Source of the DNA: Reclinomonas americana ATCC 50394
Taxonomy: Eukaryota
Assembly: GCA_048213135.1 (NCBI GenBank)
Contig: PS015060.1
Coordinates: forward strand, 1 to 35,127
Length of the DNA: 35,127 bases
Reading direction: 5' to 3'
Below, one piece after another: positions 1 through 34,364 of the stretch. The position numbers were made by a program, and so were the translations under genes. The notes beneath the pieces are model-generated. The model was given only the letters and a program-made list of their open reading frames with translations, ran no database searches and was not told the DNA's origin. Positions within the stretch are counted from its first letter, which is position 1. Each line of letters begins with the position of its first letter.

Positions 1-69
<69 letters not shown>

Positions 70-85
70 GAGGAGGAGGAGGAGG
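1..85. repeat. (AG)n followed by (GAG)n microsatellite
   Basis: Pure AG dinucleotide run then GAG triplets, directly visible. Confidence 0.95.
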
Positions 86-3000
86 TAGTGTGTCCCTCGA
101 ACCGTCGCACTTCTTCTCCATTCGCCAGTGACCACATTCGCACTGTCTTGTCCGAACCTCCACTCATTAGTTTTGACCCGACGGTGAATGTGACAGGATG
201 CAGCTCCTTGACCCTTAACCCTTAACCCGGGGGCCCCTACCCTTGACCCTTTGCTCTTGACCGTTGGCTTCCTGGGCCCTTGACCCGTAACCCGAGTGTG
301 GGGCAAAAGTTGTGTCTTGCGCAAGTCGCGAAATGTAAGTAGAGACTCCGATTTGCATGACCAACTGTCGCAGTGCATCTTCACATTACTAGATATAATG
401 TGCTGGCCATCGGGTGTCACTGCCACTGCAAGCACCCAACCTGTGCGGCCTTCCAGTCGGCGCACCTCCTCGCCACTTGCCACCGACCAGACCCGTACAG
501 TCCCGTCATAACTGCCACTCACAATGTGCTGGCCATCGGGTGTCACTGCCACTGCATTCACCTGATTCGTGTGGCCTTCCAGTCGGCGCACCTCCTCGCC
601 ACTTGCCAGCGACCACACTCGTACAGTCTTGTCTCCACTGCCACTCACAATGTGCTGACCATCGGGTGTCACTTCCACAGATTTCACCCCACTCGTACGG
701 CCTTCCAAACAGTTTACCTCTTCGCCACTTGCCAGTGACCACACCCGTACAGTCTTGTCATCACTGCCGCTCACAATGTACTGGCCATCGGGTGTTACAG
801 CCACTGTACATACCCAACCCGTGTGGCCTTCCAGTCGGCGCACCTCCTCGCCACTTGCCACCGACCACACGCGTACAGTCTTGTCCCCACTGCTACTCAC
901 AATGTGCTGGCCATCGGGTGTCACTGCCACTGCACGCACCCTTTCAGTGTGTCCTACAAACGGTCTCCTTGGCCACTTTACATCCGTCACATCGGCCCCT
1001 CTGAAATCCGCCTCCCTCGCATACGCCATGCACACATTCACCCCTCTCATATCCGCTCCCCGCCACACCGTCCTGTGCATCACCGCATCCCTCAAATCCG
1101 CACCCCTCACTCGCACACGCGACAGATCGCGCCCGCTGAACGACACTTGTGCCACACACAACACCGCCGCTGCATTCGCAGCTGCCGTCACCAATCGCTC
1201 CTCATCAATCTCGCGTGACAAGTCAATCACTTCCCACAACCTCGCTTGCAATGCAGGAGATCGTCGCACCACCTCAGCCATCTGCTCCACCAGCGATGGT
1301 CGATCATTCAGAAGTCGCACTCCCAGCACATGCTGCTGCACATCTCGCACCGTCAATCTCTTCTCCTCATCCCACGACTCCCAAGCAAACACATGGCGTG
1401 CCACACAGTGCTCCAGCAACGACAGATGCACAAATCCCCACTGCATCGTCCCATACCGTCGCACAATCGGACAGCACACTCGCACGTGCTGATTCTTGCT
1501 GCCGAGGAACTTGTCAAATGGTCCCTCTTCCACTCGACGCAAGGCGGAAGGCGCACCACCAAAGTCCTCATCCTCCTCTCCACCATCACCTGACCGGCTC
1601 TCCGTCACAGACACACGCACCACATTCCTCTCATGCATCAAGCGTGCCAGGCCCTCACTGAACGCGAGACACGTCATCTCACTGGGCACATGCTCCGCAC
1701 CAAGACGTGTCTGCCTCTCCTGTTCCCTCTCAATCCACTGTCGAATGAATTGGTCAAACACATCACACCGAGTCGGTCGCTGCACACCACTCGCCACCAA
1801 CTGCGGCAACACACGAGCCACCACTGCCAGCAGGAATGGATTCGACACCAGTGCATCCAGTCCATGCACACTATTCAGTGCACGAATGTACTCCTCGGCT
1901 GTCGACCGTCGCACTTCACCGTCATGATCACCACCATCACCCACCAACACCAGTCGCTCAAAGTACTCCTCAATCTGCTCCTTGTTGAACGGCACAATGT
2001 GCCGCTCCATCAGCTGTTGCATGCACAACTGTCCTCGTGCATCCACCGGCGCAAAGTACCGACGATATTGCGTCACTCCGCCCAGTGCCGTCAGTGCGTA
2101 ATCCCCTCGACAGGTGATAATCACCTTCGCATCACGACACACATCCAGTTGATTCTTGACAAACAGATTCACACCACGATACAACTCATCATACCCATCA
2201 AGCAACAACAGCAGTGGTTCCTCCTTCAATCGTCGCACATCCGACTCACTGGATCCCAACTCGGGCGACAGTCGTTCCAATGCCTCCTCCAACAGTCGCT
2301 CATCGGCATTTCGCAGAGCACCAAGAGGAACACGCACAGGCACTCGTCTGCTCTCTCTCGTCTGCCACTGTCGCCACGCTCGCTCAGCCAGCACGGACAT
2401 GGTGGTGGTCTTGCCAGCTCCGCTGTTGCCAAAGAGCACCAGAACACGCTGCGTGGTGTTGGCGTCGGTGAGGAAGGCATCCACTTCTGTCAACAGGTCC
2501 GTCATCTTGTCACGCGACGAGACGTCACGATCACGCGAGCACAGCAGCGGCACATACATCTGCATGTCCTTGCGCACACTTTCGCCGTGCTGGTAGAACG
2601 AGAGCTCACGCACAGCTAGTCGATGCAGTCGCTCCTCAAATGTGCTGATCATGTGCTGGACGTGTCGTGCCTCATGGATACGAGCAGTGAATCGAGCTCG
2701 CTCATCGGCCGTCAAGTGCAATCGGAAGATGATGGCGAGGAAGGCCCCACCGTCACCGAGATACTGCTGCACAGTGGCATCCGTCAGCACGAGGTCCTTG
2801 TGCGCCAACGCCTTTCTCACATCATTCAGCTCGTCCACCGCCTTGCGCTCATCAGCACCGTGAATCAACAGCAGCTTGCGACCGTCATCTTCAACAAAGC
2901 CACCATACAGCATGATGGAAGTAAGTGCCGTCGTGTCGAAACCGTCACACGGAGGGTCGGACGACGGGTCGGCGTCGAAGGCAGCACGCCAGGCCAACAC

Positions 3001-3787
3001 CACCGGCTGCTTCTCCTCGAACAACTTGACTCGAGAGGGGTGGAGTGGAGCATGTCGCTCACGCCATGCCTTCACAGCCGCCATATCCATGCCGGCAGGC
3101 GTGAAAATCGGCACCCACGCCCGCACATTAAAGTCGGGGTGGTCGCGACTGAACTGCGCCAGTGCGCATTGACAGCGCTGACGCACGGCCTCCTCCACCA
3201 CCTCAAAGGCCATGTTGATGCGGTTGAAGTTGATCATGCTGCGCGTGCACACAACCACAATCAGTACAGACTCGCACCGAGAGAAGAACAAGAAGGGAGA
3301 GAAGGCTGTTCATGGCAAGCGAAACAAACCGAGTCACTCGCTCCGAGTTGCTGTGCGAGGACACAAGAGTGAGATGCATGTTTTGCACAGAGAGATGATT
3401 CACAAGCATCCAGCACACACCTTGCATCCGCACTCCCACTCCCTCCACTCGACTGCGGCGCCACGCCAAGTGTCAGACGGACAACAAGGTGCGTGGATGA
3501 GTTGATGCCGAGTCCACGCAGTGGTGCCGTACTCATGAGCTCCAAGTCATACGGTACCGGCTTCTCCACCCCCACAATCTCCATCTGCCCATCTCCACTC
3601 TTCTCACGCAGCAAGCGTGTGGCCTCGCGCAGCAAGTCCGCGAGAGTGGACATGGCCGACATGCCCTCCACCACCACCGACAGCGATGAATCATGCGCCG
3701 CACTCACGTGCACAGAGAACTGTGCACAAACAAGGCCAGTGAGCGCAGGGAGGAGGGAAAAGAGAACAAACAAACACACACCGACAT
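86..3787 (-). CDS. NLR/STAND protein: ubiquitin-like, HEPN-like, NACHT, pentapeptide repeat, WD40 repeats (3' end incomplete or disrupted)
   Basis: Manual minus-strand translation. Predicted ATG at 3787, intron 3781-3720, Ubl-like exon 3719-3421 (FSVHV..LSVVV..STLADLL..PLRGLGINSSTHLVVRL), possible micro-exon near 3350-3328, then a stop-free exon from 3238. Motifs: NFNRI 3231-3217, FDTTAL 2940-2923, RKALAH 2817-2800, Walker A GNSGAGKT 2430-2407, Walker B LLLLLDGYDEL 2214-2182, KVIITCR 2127-2107, NPFLL 1842-1828, winged-helix FVHLSLLEH ~1434-1408, AAANA then pentapeptides (GRDLS/GADLR/GADMR/EADFR/GADVT) ~1140-975, WD40 repeats ~957-394, and a further WD fragment ~200-86 in another frame. The + strand frame-1 ORFs in the track are its antisense shadow. 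Confidence 0.9.
206..293. repeat. Degenerate telomere-like heptamer array (TTAACCC/TTGACCC; TTAAGGG-type on the minus strand)
   Basis: ccttgaccc-ttaaccc-ttaaccc...taccc-ttgaccc-tttgctc-ttgaccg...ttgaccc-gtaaccc, with 7-nt periodicity. Confidence 0.6.
394..957 (-). repeat. 126-nt coding tandem repeat (~4.5 copies of a 42-aa WD40 unit)
   Basis: Unit GH(T)xxVxAVAVTPDGQHIVSGSxDKTVRVWS(V/L)ASGEEVRRLE recurs at 126-nt spacing with high DNA identity. Confidence 0.95.
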
Positions 3788-4076: not shown

Positions 4077-6713
4077 ATGGACTCCGCACGCCCGCTCACC
4101 ACGCTCAACCAATACGCCGGCCACACACACCCTCCATCTCCATCCGCACCCTCTCCGTCTCCCCACCCACCTCCCCTTCCTCCTCCTCCTCATCCCCACA
4201 TCGCCAACTCGTCGCCACTGGTTGCGCCAATGGCGACATTCGCCTCTTCGACGCCCACCAATGCACACTACTGCTCCACACAACTCCCTTCGCCACAGTC
4301 TGCATCACACGCCTGAATTTCTCCCCCACCGATCCTTCCATGCTCTTTGCGGGCACGGAGGCAGGCTGCCTGGTCGCGCGTCTCCTTGTCAGCTGCAGCA
4401 GCTCGCCACCGTGCTGTGACGTGGTATGGTCGTCGAGTCAGCAGCACACAGGCGGAGTGCGTGCGTTGCAGGCGTCGCGTGACAATCGCCTGCTGCTCTC
4501 CGGCTCCAGCGATCACACGGTGCGCGTGTGGAACGTGGAGAGTGGCGATTGTGTGGCCACGTGGCTCGGGCACGAGGATTGGGTGTATGGAGTGGCGCTG
4601 TCGTTGGATGCGCAATGGGGGTTGAGTGTGTCGGATGATCGTACGGTGCGCGTGTGGAGTGTGGAGACGAGCGCGGAGATTGCGGTGCATAGGTGTGAGA
4701 AGGCGGAGAGGGCGTGCTCGTTGGCGTTGTCGCCGAATGGAGATGATGTGGCGGTGGGTGGCGGGAGTGGGACGGTGGAGGTGGTGTCGTTGAGGGCGCT
4801 CGTGGCTGGTGGTGGTGGGGAGGTTGAGGTGCGGTCGTTCTTTTCGGGAACGCGAGGGCATGTGGTGGCGCTGTCGTTTAATGCCAGTGGCTCGCATTTG
4901 TTGGTGTCGTGCAAGTGTTGCGTGGGGGGAAAGGGGAAGGGGGAAGGGGGGAGAGAGGGAGGGGTGGGGAGGAGAGGAAGGCAGGGAGGAAGGGGGGAAG
5001 GACAAGAGAGAGAGAGAGAGAGAGAGAAAGAGCTGCGACTATGAATGGCGATGCAGACGCAGTGGATGAGAATGGTTGGAGAGAGACTGAGCAAAGAAGA
5101 AGTGCGATGAGAGAGTGGATACAAGTGAGAAGGCGGAGAGGCAAGAGCTTCAACTCTGAATGGCTGTAGACAAAAGTGGATGAGAATGGTTGGAGAGAGA
5201 CTGAGCAAAGAAGAAGTGTGATGAGAGACAGAGAGAGAGAGACAGAGAGAGACAGAGACAGAGAGAGACAGAGAGAGACAGAGAGAGACAGAGACAGAGA
5301 GAGAGAGAGAGACAGACAGACAGAGAGAGNNNNNNNNNNNNNNNNNNNNNNNNNNNNNNNNNNNNNNNNNNNNNNNNNNNNNNNNNNNNNNNNNNNNNNN
5401 NNNNNNNNNNNNNNNNNNNNNNNNNNNNNNNNNNNNNNNNNNNNNNNNNNNNNNNNNNNNNNNNNNNNNNNNNNNNNNNNNNNNNNNNNNNNNNNNNNNN
5501 NNNNNNNNNNNNNNNNNNNNNNNNNNNNNNNNNNNNNNNNNNNNNNNNNNNNNNNNNNNNNNNNNNNNNNNNNNNNNNNNNNNNNNNNNNNNNNNNNNNN
5601 NNNNNNNNNNNNNNNNNNNNNNNNNNNNNNNNNNNNNNNNNNNNNNNNNNNNNNNNNNNNNNNNNNNNNNNNNNNNNNNNNNNNNNNNNNNNNNNNNNNN
5701 NNNNNNNNNNNNNNNNNNNNNNNNNNNNNNNNNNNNNNNNNNNNNNNNNNNNNNNNNNNNNNNNNNNNNNNNNNNNNNNNNNNNNNNNNNNNNNNNNNNN
5801 NNNNNNNNNNNNNNNNNNNNNNNNNNNNNNNNNNNNNNNNNNNNNNNNNNNNNNNNNNNNNNNNNNNNNNNNNNNNNNNNNNNNNNNNNNNNNNNNNNNN
5901 NNNNNNNNNNNNNNNNNNNNNNNNNNNNNNNNNNNNNNNNNNNNNNNNNNNNNNNNNNNNNNNNNNNNNNNNNNNNNNNNNNNNNNNNNNNNNNNNNNNN
6001 NNNNNNNNNNNNNNNNNNNNNNNNNNNNNNNNNNNNNNNNNNNNNNNNNNNNNNNNNNNNNNNNNNNNNNNNNNNNNNNNNNNNNNNNNNNNNNNNNNNN
6101 NNNNNNNNNNNNNNNNNNNNNNNNNNNNNNNNNNNNNNNNNNNNNNNNNNNNNNNNNNNNNNNNNNNNNNNNNNNNNNNNNNNNNNNNNNNNNNGAGAGA
6201 GAGAGAGAGAGAGAGCGCGGCGACAACGAATGGCGATAGACATAGTGGATGGAAAAGAACTGAGCAAAAAGAAGTGCGATGAGAGAGAGAGAGAGAGAGT
6301 GAGGGAGAGAGAGGAGGGGGAGAGTGGATACAGGTGGAGAAGGAGTGAGGCAAGAGCTGCGACTGTGATGACGATGCAGACAAAGTGGATGAAAGGCTGG
6401 AGAGAGACTGAGCAAAGAAGAAGTGCGATGAGAGAGTGAGGGAGAGAGAGGAAGAGAGGGAGAGAGAGGATGCAAGTGGGGAGGTGGAGAGGAAAGAGCT
6501 GCGACTGTGAATGGCGATGCAGACAAAAGTGACTATATCTCGCTCTCAACTCTCACAATTCACGCGTGTCTCTGCGCCCATTTTCTGTCGTGCTCCTTCA
6601 GCCATCTCCACTGTAGTTTCTCTCTCCGGAAAAGATGCAGCCACTTCCGTACAGTCTTCTGCCGTCTCCTCTCGCTCAGCTTCCACTCTGCTCTCTCACA
6701 TCATTCTCTCTTC

Positions 6714-6745
<32 letters not shown>

Positions 6746-7543
6746 GCGTCTCTCTCTCCCTCCCTTCTCTCCCTTGCTCTTCCCGGCCAGCTTTTCTCTT
6801 CTGCCCACTCGTTCACTTGCTCACTTCCATGGCTCTCTCTCTCTCTCTCTCGCTCTTTCTCTCTTCCTCTCTCTCTCTCATCGCACGTCCCTTTGCTCAG
6901 TCTCTCTCCAGCCTTTCCATCCACTTTTGTCTGCATCGCCATTCACAGTCGCAGGCCTTGCCTCACTCCCTCTCCACTTGCTCCCTCACTCTCTCTCATC
7001 GCACGTCCCTTTGCTCAGTTCTTCACTCCAGCCTTTCCCGTAATCTTGAAGAATGAGTCCGACACCTGATAATGTCTCTTTCTCCCTTTCCCTTGAGCAG
7101 TCGACGTGTCCGTCTGGCACGTGGCTACGCTGACGTGCGTGGCGGTGCTTCGAGGCCACACCAATTTCGTGTACGGCTCACGGTTTTTGTACGACGGGCA
7201 CATTGCCACGGCGGCGTGGGATTCGACGGCGTTTCTGTGGTCTTCGGGTGAGGAGGCGTCAACAATTGCGTTTCGTGCCGCTCTCTTTTTCTCTCATCTT
7301 GTGCCACCGACAGGACCGTGGGGTCATCTGCAAATGATGGAGGAGGAGCTGTTGAGCACGAGGCGCGCCATGGGTGCGCTGCACGAGATCGCTGAGGGTG
7401 GGATTAGGGCAGAGGAGGAACAAGGGCGAGTTGATGCGCCGGTGTGGTATCCGGAGGGGGAACCGTTGCCGCTGTTGGTGTTGAGGTGTTTTATTGCGGA
7501 GGAGGCGAGCATGTGGTGCTTTAGGTTGAGTTTTGGGGAGTGA
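4077..7543 (+). CDS. WD40-repeat protein with a C-terminal helical extension
   Basis: Exon ~4077-4913 has WD motifs (LVATGCANGDIRLFD, HTGGVRAL..LLLSGSSDHTVRVWN, GHEDWVYGV..SVSDDRTVRVWS). A long intron spans a gap. The exon from ~7101 gives VSVWHV..LRGHTNFVYG..ATAAWDSTAFLW through to TGA at 7543. ATG 4077 joins the main frame only through a 2-nt shift in a (CA)n run at 4122-4130. Confidence 0.8.
5029..7038. repeat. Intronic ~90-100 bp repeat in direct and inverted copies
   Basis: Unit agagctgcgactgtgaatggcgatgcagacaaaagtggatga..ggagagagactgagcaaagaagaagtgcgatgagag at ~5029, ~5170, ~6215, ~6350 and ~6495 (partial); reverse-complement copies at ~6873-6968 and ~6991-7038. Confidence 0.85.
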
Positions 7544-7873: not shown

Positions 7874-10800
7874 ATGCATTGTGAAGGCCGAAGGTGGTCG
7901 GCTGTCCGTCCCCGCTTCTGTGCCGGAGGTGTTCACGGAGACCGCGTCCGCCTCGGTGAGGGGAACGCGTCGCTGTTGTCCGTTGGCGTCGCTCATCATC
8001 AGTCGCCATTGGGCGCACAGGTCTCCTTTGTCAGTGTTGTCAAGCCACAGCTAACGTTTCGATCGGCCTCTTCCGCTGCCGACAGTGGTCACATTCCTCG
8101 TGGATCCGTGCTGGAGCAGGTGCTTGCTCTGCTGCGCTTGCCCGTGTCGACAGTGTTACCGGCGCAGTCGTGGTCGGGTGCCTCTGTACACGTATGTGCC
8201 GGCGGCAGGGCCATGGTGAGTGTGTGAAATTTAAAAATACGCACTTGATTGAGCTCTCCACATCGCGCTCATTTTCCACACACGTGCAGTCCCGTGTGCT
8301 GCACGTGACTGTGGACAGTGAGGAGCTCGAGATGGCGGCGCAGCGACAGGACTACTCCGAAAGCGCACGACTCTCCGTCAATGTGCAGTTGTTGCAAGTG
8401 ATGTTGGCCCTCAGCAGCCTCATTCTGGTCGATATGACTGATCTGGAAGACATTCGCGAGTGGCCCGAGGTCGATCTTCTGCGGTGGCTTGAGTTGCGTG
8501 CCATTCCTTCCTGGTGCGCGCTATAAGATTGCCTGACGCTGATGCCTGCACGTGTTGGTACGTTTTCTCAGCGGATTTGCGCTTGCCGCGTCTCGCAATC
8601 ACCAGTGCACGCCCGTCGATTCTCGAGTCCTTGAGCGCGGCCGTATGACGGCCACACGGCCGACGGTTGTGTTTGTTGTGCCGACGAATACTGGCGTCAA
8701 CAGCGCCTATGCTAGCGCGAGTGAATGGTGCGCGACTTCAGTCTACCCGCCCTCGCTTTATGTTGCTGTTCCTTTTGACAGTGAATCGTTTGTCTATTCG
8801 TAGGCTGCAAGTGCAGGTGGCCACCACCGTGCTTCCGTCGTTGGCAACGGAGAACACGGATCTCGCTTGTCTGCTACATCGTGTTGGAGTCGGTAAGTTG
8901 GCAGTCAGCGGTGTCATGGCACTTAGAAAATGCATGTTGTGTGCGCGTGCGTGTGTTTGTGTGTGTGTGATTCATTGGACATGATGCAGAGCTCGAGGCA
9001 CCGCTGGACCCGCTGCCGACCTTCCTCTCAGTCTATGGCGGAGCCGTGAGGTTTCTCGACTCTCCGCCCTCGTCGAACATTGCTATGGTTAGTGCAGCTG
9101 TGCTGCTTACTCACATACGTGTTCTCAGAACGACTGACATTCTTGTACACATGGGTAGCGGCAACGCGAACTCCGGCGTGAGCTGACGGCTCTTTTTGAG
9201 ACGCACTTGACGCCTCTGCAGCTTCCTATGTTCGTTGCCGATGACGACGAGCAGCCAGTTGTTGCAGTGCCACTTGGACCTGAAGGTGGGCCTGTTGCAT
9301 TGTTCGCAGTGCTTGACACCACCCTTTCGCGATCGTGCTCACCTCCTCCACCGCGCGCAGCCGTGCCGTCGTTCCTCGTCACCATTACCTCGCAATTGGA
9401 CAACATAGGCATTGTGCCCGGTGTGCGCATGTCGGACACTGACATGGACGGGAAGCCGGAGGAGAGCGGTCACCTACGCACTGTGGTTCACCACCCAGTG
9501 GACCTGAGTGAGCGGCTGCTTGTCTTGCTCAAGGCGCACGCTCTGTGCGAAGTGCGCCTCGCACAACGCGCAGTCGGTGCTCACGACAAGCGATGGATTC
9601 AACAGCTTCGGCAGCAACTCGCGAGCACCTACAGCAGCCTGGCCAACACACTGCCTCCGTACTCGCCGCAACATTTGGCTTGCCTCGAGGCAGCCGTGTC
9701 ACTCTGCAGCCACTGGAAGGCGAAGCTCGACTGCGGTCTTGCGCTCATGCGGTTGGAGAAGCACCAAGAAGCTCATCATTTCTTGTATGAGGCGCTGCGG
9801 CACCGTCCCGGCGATGCGGTACTGCGAGAGGCCTACGAGCGCTCGATCAACTCCGACGTCGACTGCTGCCGGGACCCATGTGAGCATTCGTCACAGAGTC
9901 GCGCGGCTGATGTCTCGCGCGAGATGGAGAGCCCTGAGGAGGCCGCGAAGCTCTTTGTCCAGGTTCTGCACGCCCTCTTTGGCGACGACGACGACGAGAC
10001 ACAGCGACTGCCACTCCACGTCATCATGTTGTACCTCAACCAAGTGGTAGCTGCCGACCGCCTTAACGATTTCGCGCAATATCTGCTCGGCATGCTTCAT
10101 GCGGCGGCCAACCGTGCTTGTGAAGCTCTCATGTGCTTCGAGGCCGCCGTCGAGATCCATCAGAAACACCGCCACTGGTTCAAGGCTCGCAAAATCGACC
10201 TGCCTGTCGACGAGAGCTACTACTTCGCTGCCGCCGACGCGTGCCGTTCCTTTGGCGATACGTACAAGGCCGCGTGGTGGTTGGAACGGCTTTGTCGCGA
10301 TGTGCCGACATCGCTGCACTTTCGCCACTTGTGGCACGAAGCCCTGCTGGCGTCACATCAGTACGGGCAGGCGGTGGAGACCATCGAGGAGGCGATGCGC
10401 AGCAATCCTTGCGACGTGGCCCTGTACATGCCGTACGTGCGTGCTCTTTTCCACAATGGTCGGTATGACGAATGCCGCCACCTGCTGAATAAGTGGCTCG
10501 AGCACGGCGGAGCTTGCAACCTACTGGCGAGTGACTGGGCTCTGCTGGCGCAACTGGAGGCTGCTGCTTCCAGGCCGGTGGAAGCCGCAGCATGCTACAG
10601 CATGGCAGCACGCATCGACACATCGAGTCGCGAGTACGGCCAGTTGTACAACGAGCAACTGCGCGTTGTGGCGTCCACTCTCACAAGTGGAGATGCTTGC
10701 GCTGCTGCTGCAGGCGCGCTTGTAACGCGAGTCATGGCACCATGGGTGCATGAGCAGGAGCGGCAGTGGCACGCTGCGCTGCATGCCGTGTTGGAGCCGG

Positions 10801-13166
10801 AGGTCAACGAGCAGCTGCATGGCCCGGTACAGTTCACGCCGCCAAGTGAGTGGGGCGAGAGCGGGCAGCCCGAGTCGTCGCCGCTGTGCGGTCTCGATTA
10901 CCCAGTCGTCGACCCACGTCGCGACACCGCGGAGGCCATCACGGCTGCGCAGCTCGAGGCCAATCGGCGAGATCATGACTTCCGCAATCGACACCCCGAC
11001 ACCTACGACGACGTCAAGTATTACTGGCACCTGTTCTCTGCCACTGGCGATGCGGCTGTACGCTTCAACGATGGTGTGGTCATGCAACTGGCGCGTGACG
11101 GCTTCCACTCGGATCTGTACCTCCGACAGCGACTGCGCGTTTTCAGCACTCTTATTGGCGACGTGCAAGCTGGCCGCGTGCCAGAGAGCTCACAAGTGTT
11201 ACAAGCACTGTCCCGTGAGGCTGTGTCTGTGCGCCAGTCGCTCCTACTCGAGACATTGCGACAGTCGATTGACAACAACCAAGTGCACCTTGGTCAATGG
11301 ACGAACTGCATTCTGTCGCACATTGACGCGTTGGGAGTCGATCAAGAGTTGTCGATCGCTGCCAGTTGGGTTGGACACTGCGTTTACGTGTCATTCCACC
11401 GAGTCGGCGACGAGGTGTTTGTGCGCGTCGATAACCGTGGAGAGGGCCCTCGTCCGCGGGACGTACGCTTGCGCGTGCGAGCGCCTGCAGCTGCTGGAGC
11501 TCCCGATCGAGTGCAGTCCTACGTTGTGGCGCGCTTGCGACGCATCGACATTCAACCAGGAGGCGTTTCTCGACCCTTGCTGGAGACGTACCTTGGCAAC
11601 GTTCGTCGAGCTTGTGATCTCGAAAACGAGACCGGCTCTCCACTGGTGTACGACTTGACTGTCGGTGCCCACGTGGCGCTCTTCGTCGCCCCCAGTCAGG
11701 CCGCTGTGATTGCCGAGCTGCAGTACGCGGCGATGCAATACCAGACCAAGGCCGGCAACTGCGCGCGCAAGAGCCAAGTCGTTGGAACTCGCCGACGCAC
11801 TCGATTTGTTGCCTTGTACAAGCTCATGAAGCAGATGGAGCGGAGTGTGGCCGTGGAAGTGCTCTCGCGGTCGACAACCTTTGATCCACAGCTGGTGCTG
11901 GCCGCGGAGGCTGATCGACCGCAGCCCATCCGTCCCATGATCCGTGCCGCCCTTCCGCAGCGTGTGCTTCACTTGGAGCACCTGACGAGCGCCGAGTTCC
12001 TCCACTTTCGTGGACCGGCGGCTGGGTCACCGCTGCCTCCGCCGCCTTTCATGGCGCTGCAGAGCATCAGTCGACTTGAAATGAGGGATGAAGACGCTGA
12101 CAGTGATGTGCCGTTCCGTTCGGCTACACCGGATCTGTATCAGCTGTTCAAGTACTACTGGCATCTGCTGTCATCGAATGGGCGCACCATGTTCAGCAAC
12201 GGCCAGGAACTCCGTCATGGTTACTTCTTCAGCACCCTGTTCCTGCAGGAGCGCCTCGACCATTTGACGGCACTGCTACACGATTTCGACACCAACGCCG
12301 CTACATCATCGTTTGCTGTTATTACTGCCGAGACACAGCCGGCCACCCTCCGACGCGCTCTCGCTGTGGAGATCGCTGCTGTCACCCGCTCGCTCGCGCT
12401 GTCTGTGATGATTGACGCCGGCGACGTCGATGGAGAAGCGTGGGCTCGAGAGGTGCGGGAGCACGTCCGCAGACTCGACGTGGATGAGGAGTTGTCCCTC
12501 GCGTGTGCCTGGCGGCTCCGCTGCGTGTATGTGACTATTCATCGCATCGACGGTGACCGGCTGGTCATTCGCGTGGATAATCGTGGAAGCACTCCAGTGC
12601 CCCACCTCAACGACGGCCGTCGCTGTTTCCCGTACATTGTCGGTGTTGTGTCGCTGCGCGCCTTTGTGAATGAGGCACGTTACAAACAGTACCTCCGAGG
12701 TATTCGTCGCGCTCGCTCTCTTTCAGAGGCCGAGGGTGCCGCACTAATCTACGACACTTCTCGCGCGGCTTTCGGTCCAGCTTTGGATCAGCGTGTAGTT
12801 TTGCAACAGAGGCAATATCCGGCACTGGCATATCAGCGCACGCCGACAGGCGTCATCAAGAGCCACTGTGTGGGCACCCACATCCGCATGCAACGCGTGC
12901 AGCTGGAGGCGGATCGTCGCATCTTTGCTGGTGCGGCACCACGAGTTAACATTCCGGCGGAAGTAGCCGGCAGTGAGTGGCTTCGTGCGACGTACCGCAA
13001 GCGGGCTGTCGACATGACGTACCGTGAGATCAAGGCCGCCGATGTCGTCCTCACGTTTTCCCGCATGCTGCAGCGTGGTGTGCGACCGAGCTCACTGGTT
13101 CCGGAGTTACCGTTGGGAGGTCTACCGGTGGTGCCAGAGCCTGCTGCTCGTCCAGTGCCTGGTTGA
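7874..13166 (+). CDS. Large TPR-containing protein with two tandem putative cysteine-peptidase-like domains (start uncertain)
   Basis: Several short 5' exons with GT-AG boundaries (~8291-8512, ~8572-8727, ~8804-8891, ~8989-9087), then a ~4.0-kb stop-free exon 9159-13166. TPR-like helices ~9700-10660 (GLALMRLEKHQEAHHFLYEALRHRPGD, YLLGMLH..EALMCFEAAVEI, QYGQAVETIEEAMRSNP). Internal duplication ~10990-11870 and ~12125-13070 sharing KYYWHL, W..xCVYV, RVDNRG, Y.A..YQ. Confidence 0.8.
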
Positions 13167-13333: not shown

Positions 13334-16529
<3,196 letters not shown>

Positions 16530-33200: not shown

Positions 33201-34364
33201 CGAAAAGAGCAACAGACGGCACTGGCGCAGAAAGATGGGGAAAGAGAGAAACAGCAGTTCACAGCAACAACAGAACGAACTCGGCCCAGATTTTGCAGAG
33301 AAGAGGGAGAGGGAGAGAGATCATGGAGACAGAAAGAAAGTCGAACTCGAAGAAGATGCAAAATGACAGAGACAAGGCACAGAAAGATGAAGGGAGAGAT
33401 AACACTTCACAGCAACAAAAGAACAAACTCGGCCCAGACTTTCCAGAGAAGGGGGAGAGGAAGAGAGAGAGAGAGAGAGATTACAGAGACAGAAAGTCGA
33501 ACTCGAAGAAGACGCAACATGACAGAGACAAGGCACAGAAAGATGGAGGGAAGGATAGCACTCACAGCAACAAAAGAACAAACTCGGCCCAGACTTTGCA
33601 GAGAAGGGGGAGAGAGAGATCACAGAGACAGAAAGAAAGTCGAACTCGAAGAAAACGCAAAATGACAGAGACAACAGACGGCACTGGCACAGAATGATGG
33701 AGGGAGATAGCACTTCACAGCAACACCAGACAAAATCAGCCCAGAATTTACAGAGCAGGGAGAGAGGAGAGAGAGATCACGGATACAGAAAGAAAGTCGA
33801 ACTCGAAGAAGATGCAAACAGGAGAGTGGTCAAATCGATATCAGAGTACGCCAGCCACAGGCACTTGGAGAGCGACCCTTCTCTCTACACACCCACCGAG
33901 CATTCCTCCACACGAATCGGGGCCAATGTGAGTAAAGAAGATATGATCGATCTTCTGCAGCCGAATGCCGAACTCGGAGGCATATCGCTGAAATCCCTCG
34001 CCAACATTGAAAAGGTACCTGCAAAAAAAGACACAAACACAAATAACGTGAGTAGAGCTGCAGCAAACCAAGAGAAGAAAAGAGGCGCGCAAACCGACGG
34101 CCTTCCACCTACACATTAACAAAGTCAGTGCACACAAACAGGGGAAAGACATCTGTCTCTGCAAGCTCCCTTCTGGTGGTGGCAGTGGAGCTCAGGGCTT
34201 TGTAGACTCTCTCTCTCTCTCTNNNNNNNNNNNNNNNNNNNNCCTCTCTCTCTCCTTTCTCTGTCTGTTTCTCATCATCTGTGTTTCGGAGGGGCACTCA
34301 CCACCAGCAGCACACACGGATCAGTGTCCAGTGTGTTGCCACAGACTTCTGCGTGAATCAACAT
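27458..34364 (-). CDS. ELAC2: Long-form tRNase Z (tRNA 3'-processing endoribonuclease)
   Basis: Multi-exon. N-terminal [51 protein letters not shown]; exosite [53 protein letters not shown]; motif [12 protein letters not shown] (~28390-28362); [30 protein letters not shown] at 27458-27460. Confidence 0.93.
28773..29345. repeat. ~180-bp intronic tandem repeat (3 copies plus a partial; another copy at ~30341-30385)
   Basis: tctcgaa(a)ccat unit starts at 28773, 28954, 29133 and 29312. Confidence 0.9.
33211..33818. repeat. ~150-156-bp intronic tandem repeat (4 copies)
   Basis: cagaaagatg..cacagcaaca..aactcggcccaga..aaagtcgaactcgaagaa unit at ~33227, 33377, 33533 and 33687. Confidence 0.9.

Follow-up and report, generated by a model that had tools for sequence, protein, structure and literature searches.

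Proteins in which a HEPN domain is joined to a NACHT module are already established in the literature, where such fusions are predicted to be RNA-degrading immune or suicide receptors and have been recorded from molluscs, cnidarians, cephalochordates and bacteria. In PMC3710099 (Table 1 and section 16), HEPN domains of the DZIP3/hRUL138 type appear together with NACHT, Death, CARD, LRR and TPR modules in animals and Capsaspora, and PMC9646362 describes more than 50 HEPN_DZIP3-NACHT genes in the pearl oyster, with Rx4H as the commonest motif spacing and N as the typical residue after the R. For the Swt1 clade, section 16 of PMC3710099 describes, for cephalochordates and cnidarians, CXorf38-family HEPN domains in combination with NACHT and Death, and interprets the HEPN-NACHT and HEPN-STAND proteins of this clade as RNA-degrading apoptotic or antiviral effectors; the same paper describes bacterial proteins that join an N-terminal HEPN to STAND NTPases and, in its Table 1, the Ava_2192-type Swt1-like HEPN, which occurs in operons linked to restriction-modification and is joined there to an AAA+ ATPase. 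The supplementary discussion of bioRxiv 10.1101/2022.07.19.500537 also counts HEPN as an enzymatic effector of NACHT proteins in bacteria. Here we analyzed a stretch of 35,127 nucleotides of Reclinomonas americana ATCC 50394 (contig PS015060.1, positions 1 to 35,127; hereafter the window), in which a NOD-like receptor (NLR) gene near the left end had been predicted, from the sequence alone, to carry a HEPN RNase effector domain at 2720-3237. The results indicated that the N-terminal domain of this protein (hereafter the N-domain) is probably a highly diverged HEPN fold of the Swt1/Abi2 clade, and thus a very divergent further case of the known HEPN-NACHT architecture.

The coding strand for 2720-3237 is the minus strand, and the plus-strand frame over the same positions is full of stops. 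The minus-strand open reading frame (ORF) starts at 3291 and runs off the left end of the window after 1097 codons, with no stop before the edge. Its first ATG lies at 3237, directly preceded by a pyrimidine tract and an AG and with an in-frame stop upstream; residues are numbered from the Met at this ATG, so that 2720-3237 corresponds to residues 1-172. The encoded protein has a tripartite NLR-like layout, in the order N-domain, NACHT, pentapeptide repeats and five WD40 repeats (residue ranges are given in the feature table below). The segments quoted in the original prediction were all found on the minus strand, namely MINFNRIN...EEAVR (E15-x3-R19), FDTTALTSIML (residues 100-110) and AVDELNDVRKALAH (R141 and H146, 2800-2817), and they do precede a real NACHT domain, which scores above the Pfam cut-off (PF05729, E 9.2e-10, 39 bits against 26.7) and keeps an intact Walker A motif, GNSGAGKT, at residues 270-277.

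The assignment of the N-domain is carried by its statistical resemblance to the HEPN_Swt1 family. Among 24,736 models, HEPN_Swt1 (PF18731) was the sole Pfam family reported at E ≤ 10 for the N-domain, with E 0.039 when residues 1-215 were searched and E 0.012 for residues 96-182, matching profile positions 73-101 of 115. PADLOC and NCBIfam returned no family for the N-domain. For a comparison that does not depend on Pfam's own model, bacterial HEPN_Swt1 domains were fetched from 401 genomes, of which 12 and then 20 gave matches; 35 of the 36 HEPN_Swt1 loci entered the profile, one (L032) being left out because of an in-frame TAG in its match, and a further genome search in the class of genome G171 added no new HEPN_Swt1 loci. 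Many of the bacterial matches (loci L002-L037) lie at the N-terminus of ORFs of 1050-1223 amino acids, which are presumably the HEPN plus AAA+ (DUF499) defence proteins described in PMC3710099, and one genome (G654) carries five HEPN_Swt1 copies. The score of the N-domain climbed as the profile improved, from 7.8 bits with 12 sequences, equalled by 1 of 2000 shuffles, to 15.7 bits with 35 sequences (E 5.3e-7 for a single comparison). None of 2000 full shuffles (maximum 7.0) and none of 2000 shuffles within 15-residue windows (maximum 6.5) reached 15.7 bits, and the reversed N-domain sequence gave no score on the 35-sequence profile. When 370 real proteins and window ORFs (91,555 amino acids) were ranked by the same profile, the NLR gene came first with 12.0 bits and E 0.0028, and the runner-up had 7.0. 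In support, when the single sequence was compared with the 35-sequence alignment by hhalign, the probability was 57% with P 1e-4 over 67 columns (residues 90-161), a stretch that spans both FDTTAL and RKALAH, and none of 200 shuffles reached its score of 31.4 (maximum 23.4). The profile comparison thus turned out borderline positive for HEPN_Swt1 and negative for the other Pfam HEPN families.

Next, the residues of the N-domain were compared with the family in an alignment of the 35 bacterial HEPN_Swt1 domains plus the query (alignment A1), in which the inclusion of the query favours matches. R141 aligns to R in 34 of the 35 domains and H146 to H in all 35, and both residues of this pair are essential by mutagenesis in several HEPN RNases (PMC3710099, section 6). 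A145 corresponds to the family A (26/35), D101 to D (28/35), L105 to L (31/35), R131 to R (26/35) and L160 to L (21/35), while W58, which follows an insertion of about 25 residues specific to this protein, coincides with the family W (32/35). Counted with the query included, 8 of the 11 best-conserved HEPN_Swt1 columns are therefore matched colinearly over about 100 residues: W58, D101, L105, R131, R141, A145, H146 and L160. Nearer the N-terminus, E15-x3-R19 lines up with E in 8 and R in 11 of the 35 domains, for example in a subset of the ENSIR type; HEPN domains generally have a conserved acidic residue upstream, typically as Ex3[KR]. The landmarks of the original prediction, the N-terminal helix, FDTTAL and RKALAH, are hence colinear with conserved HEPN_Swt1 columns.

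A language-model search, which uses no alignment, led to the same families. With residues 1-215 as query of the ESM Atlas, 18 of 30 neighbours at 0.92-0.93 were HEPN_Swt1 (10) or HEPN_DZIP3 (8) clusters, and the family or clan was common to 8 of the 10 best named matches; with residues 1-190, HEPN clusters made up 22 of 30 named clusters (13 Swt1 and 9 DZIP3). In the DZIP3-labelled neighbour clusters 11-38% of the members carry HEPN_DZIP3, and these clusters are the sole computed link of the N-domain to DZIP3. Several weak lines thus agree, two of which, the profile statistics and the language-model neighbours, are independent in method. The position of the N-domain adds context, since the N-terminal slot of a STAND NTPase is also where HEPN stands in the published HEPN-NACHT fusions and, presumably, in many of the sampled bacterial HEPN_Swt1 proteins.

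The remainder of the protein has clear relatives. For the core from NACHT to WD40, 39 proteins were found at E ≤ 0.001 (best 7.2e-53), and identity was 22-31% in those aligned over most of the queried region. The majority belong to Mortierellomycete fungi and to Mycoavidus and Glomeribacter endosymbionts, and the order NACHT-pentapeptide-WD40 is retained; those numbered P0004-P0021 include Linnemannia, Gryganskiella, Dissophora and Mortierella besides the endosymbionts Mycoavidus and Glomeribacter. BLAST alignments of these relatives begin at query residues 172-267, downstream of the HEPN core, and their own N-termini showed no similarity to the N-domain (phmmer with filters off, best E 0.18). 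The N-terminal slot therefore appears variable in this NLR family, as expected of an effector position, and the precomputed Pfam lists of the core relatives show protein-kinase families in one protein and an Mrr-type nuclease family in another. The occurrence of the NACHT-pentapeptide-WD40 core in fungi, endosymbionts and an unrelated eukaryote suggests that this chassis may have moved horizontally. As to the N-domain itself, a tblastn search within the window found the query alone (next E 0.58) and no paralogue, and an exhaustive phmmer search of 1.84 billion representatives gave one match at E 3.1e-4, to a 2131-amino-acid repetitive adhesin-like protein, which was rejected as spurious and repeat-driven.

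Compared with the described systems, the N-domain shares with the bacterial Swt1-like HEPN domains the sole Pfam family matched, the colinear signatures W, (L/W)D..AL and R..V.EL..(V/I)R.xxAH, and a place at the very N-terminal end of a large NTPase protein. It differs from them in staying below the Pfam cut-off, in the absence of three family residues (the N following R, the tryptophan of NW and the arginine of RxLD), and in the insertion of about 25 residues after helix 1; moreover, its partner is a NACHT rather than a DUF499-type AAA+ module, and its host is a eukaryote. The DZIP3/hRUL138-like HEPN-NACHT proteins (PF18738) of bivalves and cnidarians, as described in PMC9646362 and in Table 1 of PMC3710099, are built to the same plan, with HEPN at the N-terminus, NACHT in the middle and LRR, TPR or WD40 repeats at the C-terminus; Rx4H is their commonest spacing, and DZIP3-labelled clusters are among the Atlas neighbours of this domain. 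On the other hand, they typically have N after R where K stands here, their Pfam family is unmatched at E ≤ 10, and they form an animal-lineage family while the window is not recognisably animal. To the CXorf38-family HEPN-NACHT and the bacterial HEPN-STAND proteins the present protein can be likened by architecture alone, a Swt1-clade HEPN joined to a NACHT/STAND NTPase, and the Zn-ribbon insert of CXorf38 was not seen in it. The Mortierellomycete, Mycoavidus and Glomeribacter proteins have the homologous core in the same domain order but unrelated N-termini. RNase L/Ire1 KEN and Csm6, finally, serve as the model for the mechanism proposed below, although they have no detectable sequence relation to this domain; in the structure comparisons, Csm6 chains appeared at E 1.8-3.3 in Foldseek and at Z 6.1 in VIA. 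Collectively, the N-domain lies outside the formal Pfam families HEPN_Swt1, for which it is below the cut-off, and HEPN_DZIP3, which it does not match, and yet would most likely work like their members.

The observations of the original prediction were confirmed and its interpretation was supported in part, and several results have to be set against a HEPN assignment. The HEPN_Swt1 Pfam score of 14.6-16.4 bits stays well below the curated gathering cut-off (27.5 bits), the matched stretch, roughly 30 residues long, is confined to the surroundings of the motif, and neither HEPN_DZIP3 nor any other HEPN family was matched at E ≤ 10, so that, of the Swt1/DZIP3-like ordered pattern that had been proposed, the Swt1 half has borderline support from the profiles and the DZIP3 half has support from the Atlas neighbours only. 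A word-indexed search of 5.8 billion clusters with residues 1-215 yielded 1517 candidates (lengths 593-1889) but none at E ≤ 0.01, and no homologue was found in bacterial or archaeal genome, viral or metagenome contigs. The bare Rx4-6H motif occurs six times in the 215-residue N-region, where R (20) and H (10) are abundant, and at least once in 94% of 5000 composition-matched shuffles; being no more frequent than chance, it leaves the HEPN claim to rest on profile or fold evidence. As for the language model, the Atlas HEPN labels are borne by just 11-20% of the cluster members, and with residues 1-190 the best named family was DUF4559, with a consistency count of 2 of 10. Structure prediction by AlphaFold2 (AF2) from the single sequence was unusable (predicted local distance difference test, pLDDT, 39.6), whereas AF2 with alignment A1 gave an all-helical model (pLDDT 74.6, predicted template modelling score 0.67), so that the helical character first proposed is borne out in the alignment-driven model alone. 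In that model R141-H146 lies at the end of the helix 128-145, followed by a loop and the helix 153-172, and a helix end before a loop is the HEPN motif position given in section 7 of PMC3710099; because the confident model was built on the HEPN_Swt1 alignment, its HEPN-like fold is partly circular and serves as a consistency check rather than as independent proof. Foldseek of this model against the PDB gave no match at E ≤ 0.001. In VIA, which is independent of Foldseek, the top match was the yeast Swt1 C-terminal (HEPN) domain 4pqz (Z 7.8, root-mean-square deviation 3.7, 116 residues aligned), a Z value within the chance range, as values below about 13 are common for helical bundles; other HEPN entries followed (2hsb at 7.3, the sacsin HEPN 3o10 at 6.9, 1wwp at 6.6, then 3c8g, 3brj and 4nqf), with non-HEPN structures close behind the top match (Cas12e at 7.6, acyl-CoA dehydrogenases at 7.1-7.2). 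The sub-cut-off Pfam score, the six Rx4-6H occurrences and the lack of a significant Foldseek match would fit an unrelated, lineage-specific helical effector or adaptor, whose likeness to HEPN is a chance match of one amphipathic helix with R....AH. The significant part of every profile match is indeed centred on residues 126-160, the N-terminal helix alone scores -1.8 bits on the 35-sequence profile, which is not significant, and a PDB sequence search produced just a weak UBA-domain match (1wiv over residues 97-136, E 0.94), which was rejected as insignificant. We nevertheless regard such a coincidence as distinctly unlikely: the profile score was reached by none of the 4000 shuffles and by none of the other 369 real sequences, hhalign extends to FDTTAL, 40 residues upstream, with family-like spacing, W58, D101, L105 and R131 also fit conserved columns, and the alignment-free language-model search independently returned HEPN clusters.

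If the fold is HEPN, whether it is catalytically competent depends on the residues around the motif, and the caution of the original prediction about the K after R is justified. K142 replaces the family N found in 29 of the 35 domains (the others have G in 2, A in 2, D in 1 and I in 1, and K in none), and section 6 of PMC3710099 gives the residue following the HEPN R as mostly N, D or H. Besides, G119 stands where HEPN_Swt1 has a near-invariant W (34/35) and Q158 where it has a second R (33/35); these three mismatches weaken both membership and activity. The N-domain might accordingly be a catalytically dead HEPN fold, used for RNA binding, for sensing or as a homotypic adaptor rather than for RNA cleavage, and comparable in this to the HEPN of eukaryotic Swt1, whose dyad is probably inactive according to PMC3710099, which also describes a polar residue after R as an aid to catalysis in KEN. 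This alternative seems unlikely, though less so than a chance resemblance: the essential R141 and H146 are both present, together with A145, 6 of the 35 bacterial members likewise do without N after R (having G, A, D or I), and K is itself polar and basic. The state of the locus raises a further doubt. Past the fifth WD40 repeat the three-frame translation shows about 100 residues (about 300 nucleotides) of non-WD40 sequence with short repeats like CCCTTAACCC/CCCTTGACC, then one further WD40 repeat in a different frame at about 85-180 and a (GA)n tract at the window edge. The break in the WD40 array goes back either to the collapse or misassembly of a repeat or to a genuine frameshift or disruption, and because the 3′ end is disrupted the locus may be misassembled or a pseudogene. 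That a decaying or misassembled gene makes no functional protein would agree with this disorder, with the lack of a stop before the edge and with the gapped state of the draft (2509 N), but it appears very improbable: about 975 codons run without a break from the N-domain through NACHT and the pentapeptide repeats to the fifth WD40 repeat, the Walker A is intact, and the break falls in near-identical tandem repeats beside a microsatellite, where draft assemblies would commonly collapse.

On the preferred reading, that of a diverged HEPN domain, the protein may be pictured as follows. HEPN sites of RNase L/Ire1 KEN and Csm6 become active when two domains are juxtaposed. By analogy, the C-terminal repeats would sense a ligand, the NACHT module would oligomerise upon nucleotide binding, as in its family, and the HEPN domains would thereby be juxtaposed, so that R141 and H146 of neighbouring protomers make a metal-independent RNase site; RNA cleavage would then arrest growth, kill the cell or destroy viral RNA. 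A two-copy complex prediction with residues 1-200 scored 0.00, and, run without alignment or controls and with the partner fold uncertain, it carries no weight on dimerisation in either direction. What the data show directly is the order of the domains and a statistical likeness to HEPN_Swt1. The HEPN fold is probable, whereas the combined claim of a HEPN domain acting as the effector module is evenly balanced, and that the domain is both a HEPN fold and an active RNase effector falls somewhat short of an even balance. A HEPN-NLR in an unsampled eukaryote is plausible as a whole, its architecture being known and its key assignments borderline.

Features of the NLR gene and of its surroundings in the window (positions of the window; residues numbered from the Met at 3237)
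Feature	Position	Strand	Evidence
N-terminal HEPN-like domain, residues 1-175	2713..3237	minus	HEPN_Swt1 Pfam match, 35-sequence profile, hhalign, alignment-driven AF2
E15-E-A-V-R19, Ex3R motif, first helix	3181..3195	minus	alignment A1
W58, aligned to the HEPN_Swt1 conserved Trp	3064..3066	minus	alignment A1
F100-D-T-T-A-L105, counterpart of the HEPN_Swt1 (L/W)D..AL motif	2923..2940	minus	alignment A1, hhalign
R141-K-A-L-A-H146, candidate Rx4H catalytic motif	2800..2817	minus	alignment A1 and model
Helical linker / pre-NACHT region, residues 176-263	2449..2712	minus	BLAST alignments of NACHT-core relatives begin at query residues 172-267
NACHT NTPase, residues 264-383; Walker A at 2407-2430	2089..2448	minus	Pfam PF05729
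Pentapeptide repeats, residues 698-732	1042..1146	minus	Pfam PF00805, E 1e-5, 25.4 bits against cut-off 20.2
Five near-identical WD40 repeats, residues 758-975	313..966	minus	Pfam PF00400, E 2.5e-52, 5 stretches
Disrupted 3′ end of the NLR gene	1..312	minus	three-frame translation; ORF without stop
WD40 coding region	4100-5044	plus	Pfam above cut-off
WD40 coding region	7106-7543	plus	Pfam 25.0 bits against 27, below cut-off
TPR-repeat ORF, 1319 amino acids, TPR near residues 176-440	9207-13166	plus	Pfam above cut-off
Nitroreductase-family ORF	13500-14231	minus	Pfam E 1.1e-16
tRNase Z N-terminal fragment	33844-34191	minus	Pfam E 7e-10

The surroundings of the gene look eukaryotic, with extended (GA)n and (CA)n tracts and long ORFs free of interruptions, and the draft contains gaps amounting to 2509 N; this overall look may recall kinetoplastid genomes. 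When the 65 other ORFs of the window were scanned against Pfam, four had above-cut-off matches (WD40, TPR, nitroreductase and the tRNase Z fragment), and CSRNP_N was found below the cut-off in one (20.3 bits against 27). Just upstream of the NLR gene lies the plus-strand WD40 region, split by N-gaps (5300-6200), which may be part of another, divergently arranged repeat-containing receptor-like gene. Within the 1319-amino-acid ORF a large C-terminal module appears to be duplicated, with two copies of ...KYYWHL...VYV..HR....L.IRVDNRG..., and the search of 5.8 billion clusters gave this ORF no homologue at E ≤ 1e-5. Most long ORFs of the window are without a Pfam family, as would be expected of a lineage that has been sampled poorly.

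Taken further, the locus could be read as belonging to a poorly sampled protist lineage with few introns, in which an orphan, fast-evolved HEPN RNase acts as death or antiviral effector on an NLR-like receptor and a horizontally moved NACHT-pentapeptide-WD40 chassis has been re-armed with a different effector; this fuller scenario is speculative and, taken as a whole, doubtful. We know of no eukaryotic HEPN-NACHT fusion that has been tested biochemically, and the present gene, if correctly assigned, would offer a compact intron-free construct with which to ask whether a HEPN RNase is turned on when NACHT oligomerises. It would also illustrate effector drift, as the N-domain has no detectable homologue in about 1.8 billion representatives and still keeps the catalytic R and H. 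With a single-copy HEPN-NACHT protein in a unicellular eukaryote, this architecture would extend beyond its known range, and, should RNA viruses occur in the host lineage, the gene would qualify as a candidate antiviral sensor. The fuller scenario, if true, would place RNA-targeting NLR immunity outside animals and bacteria.

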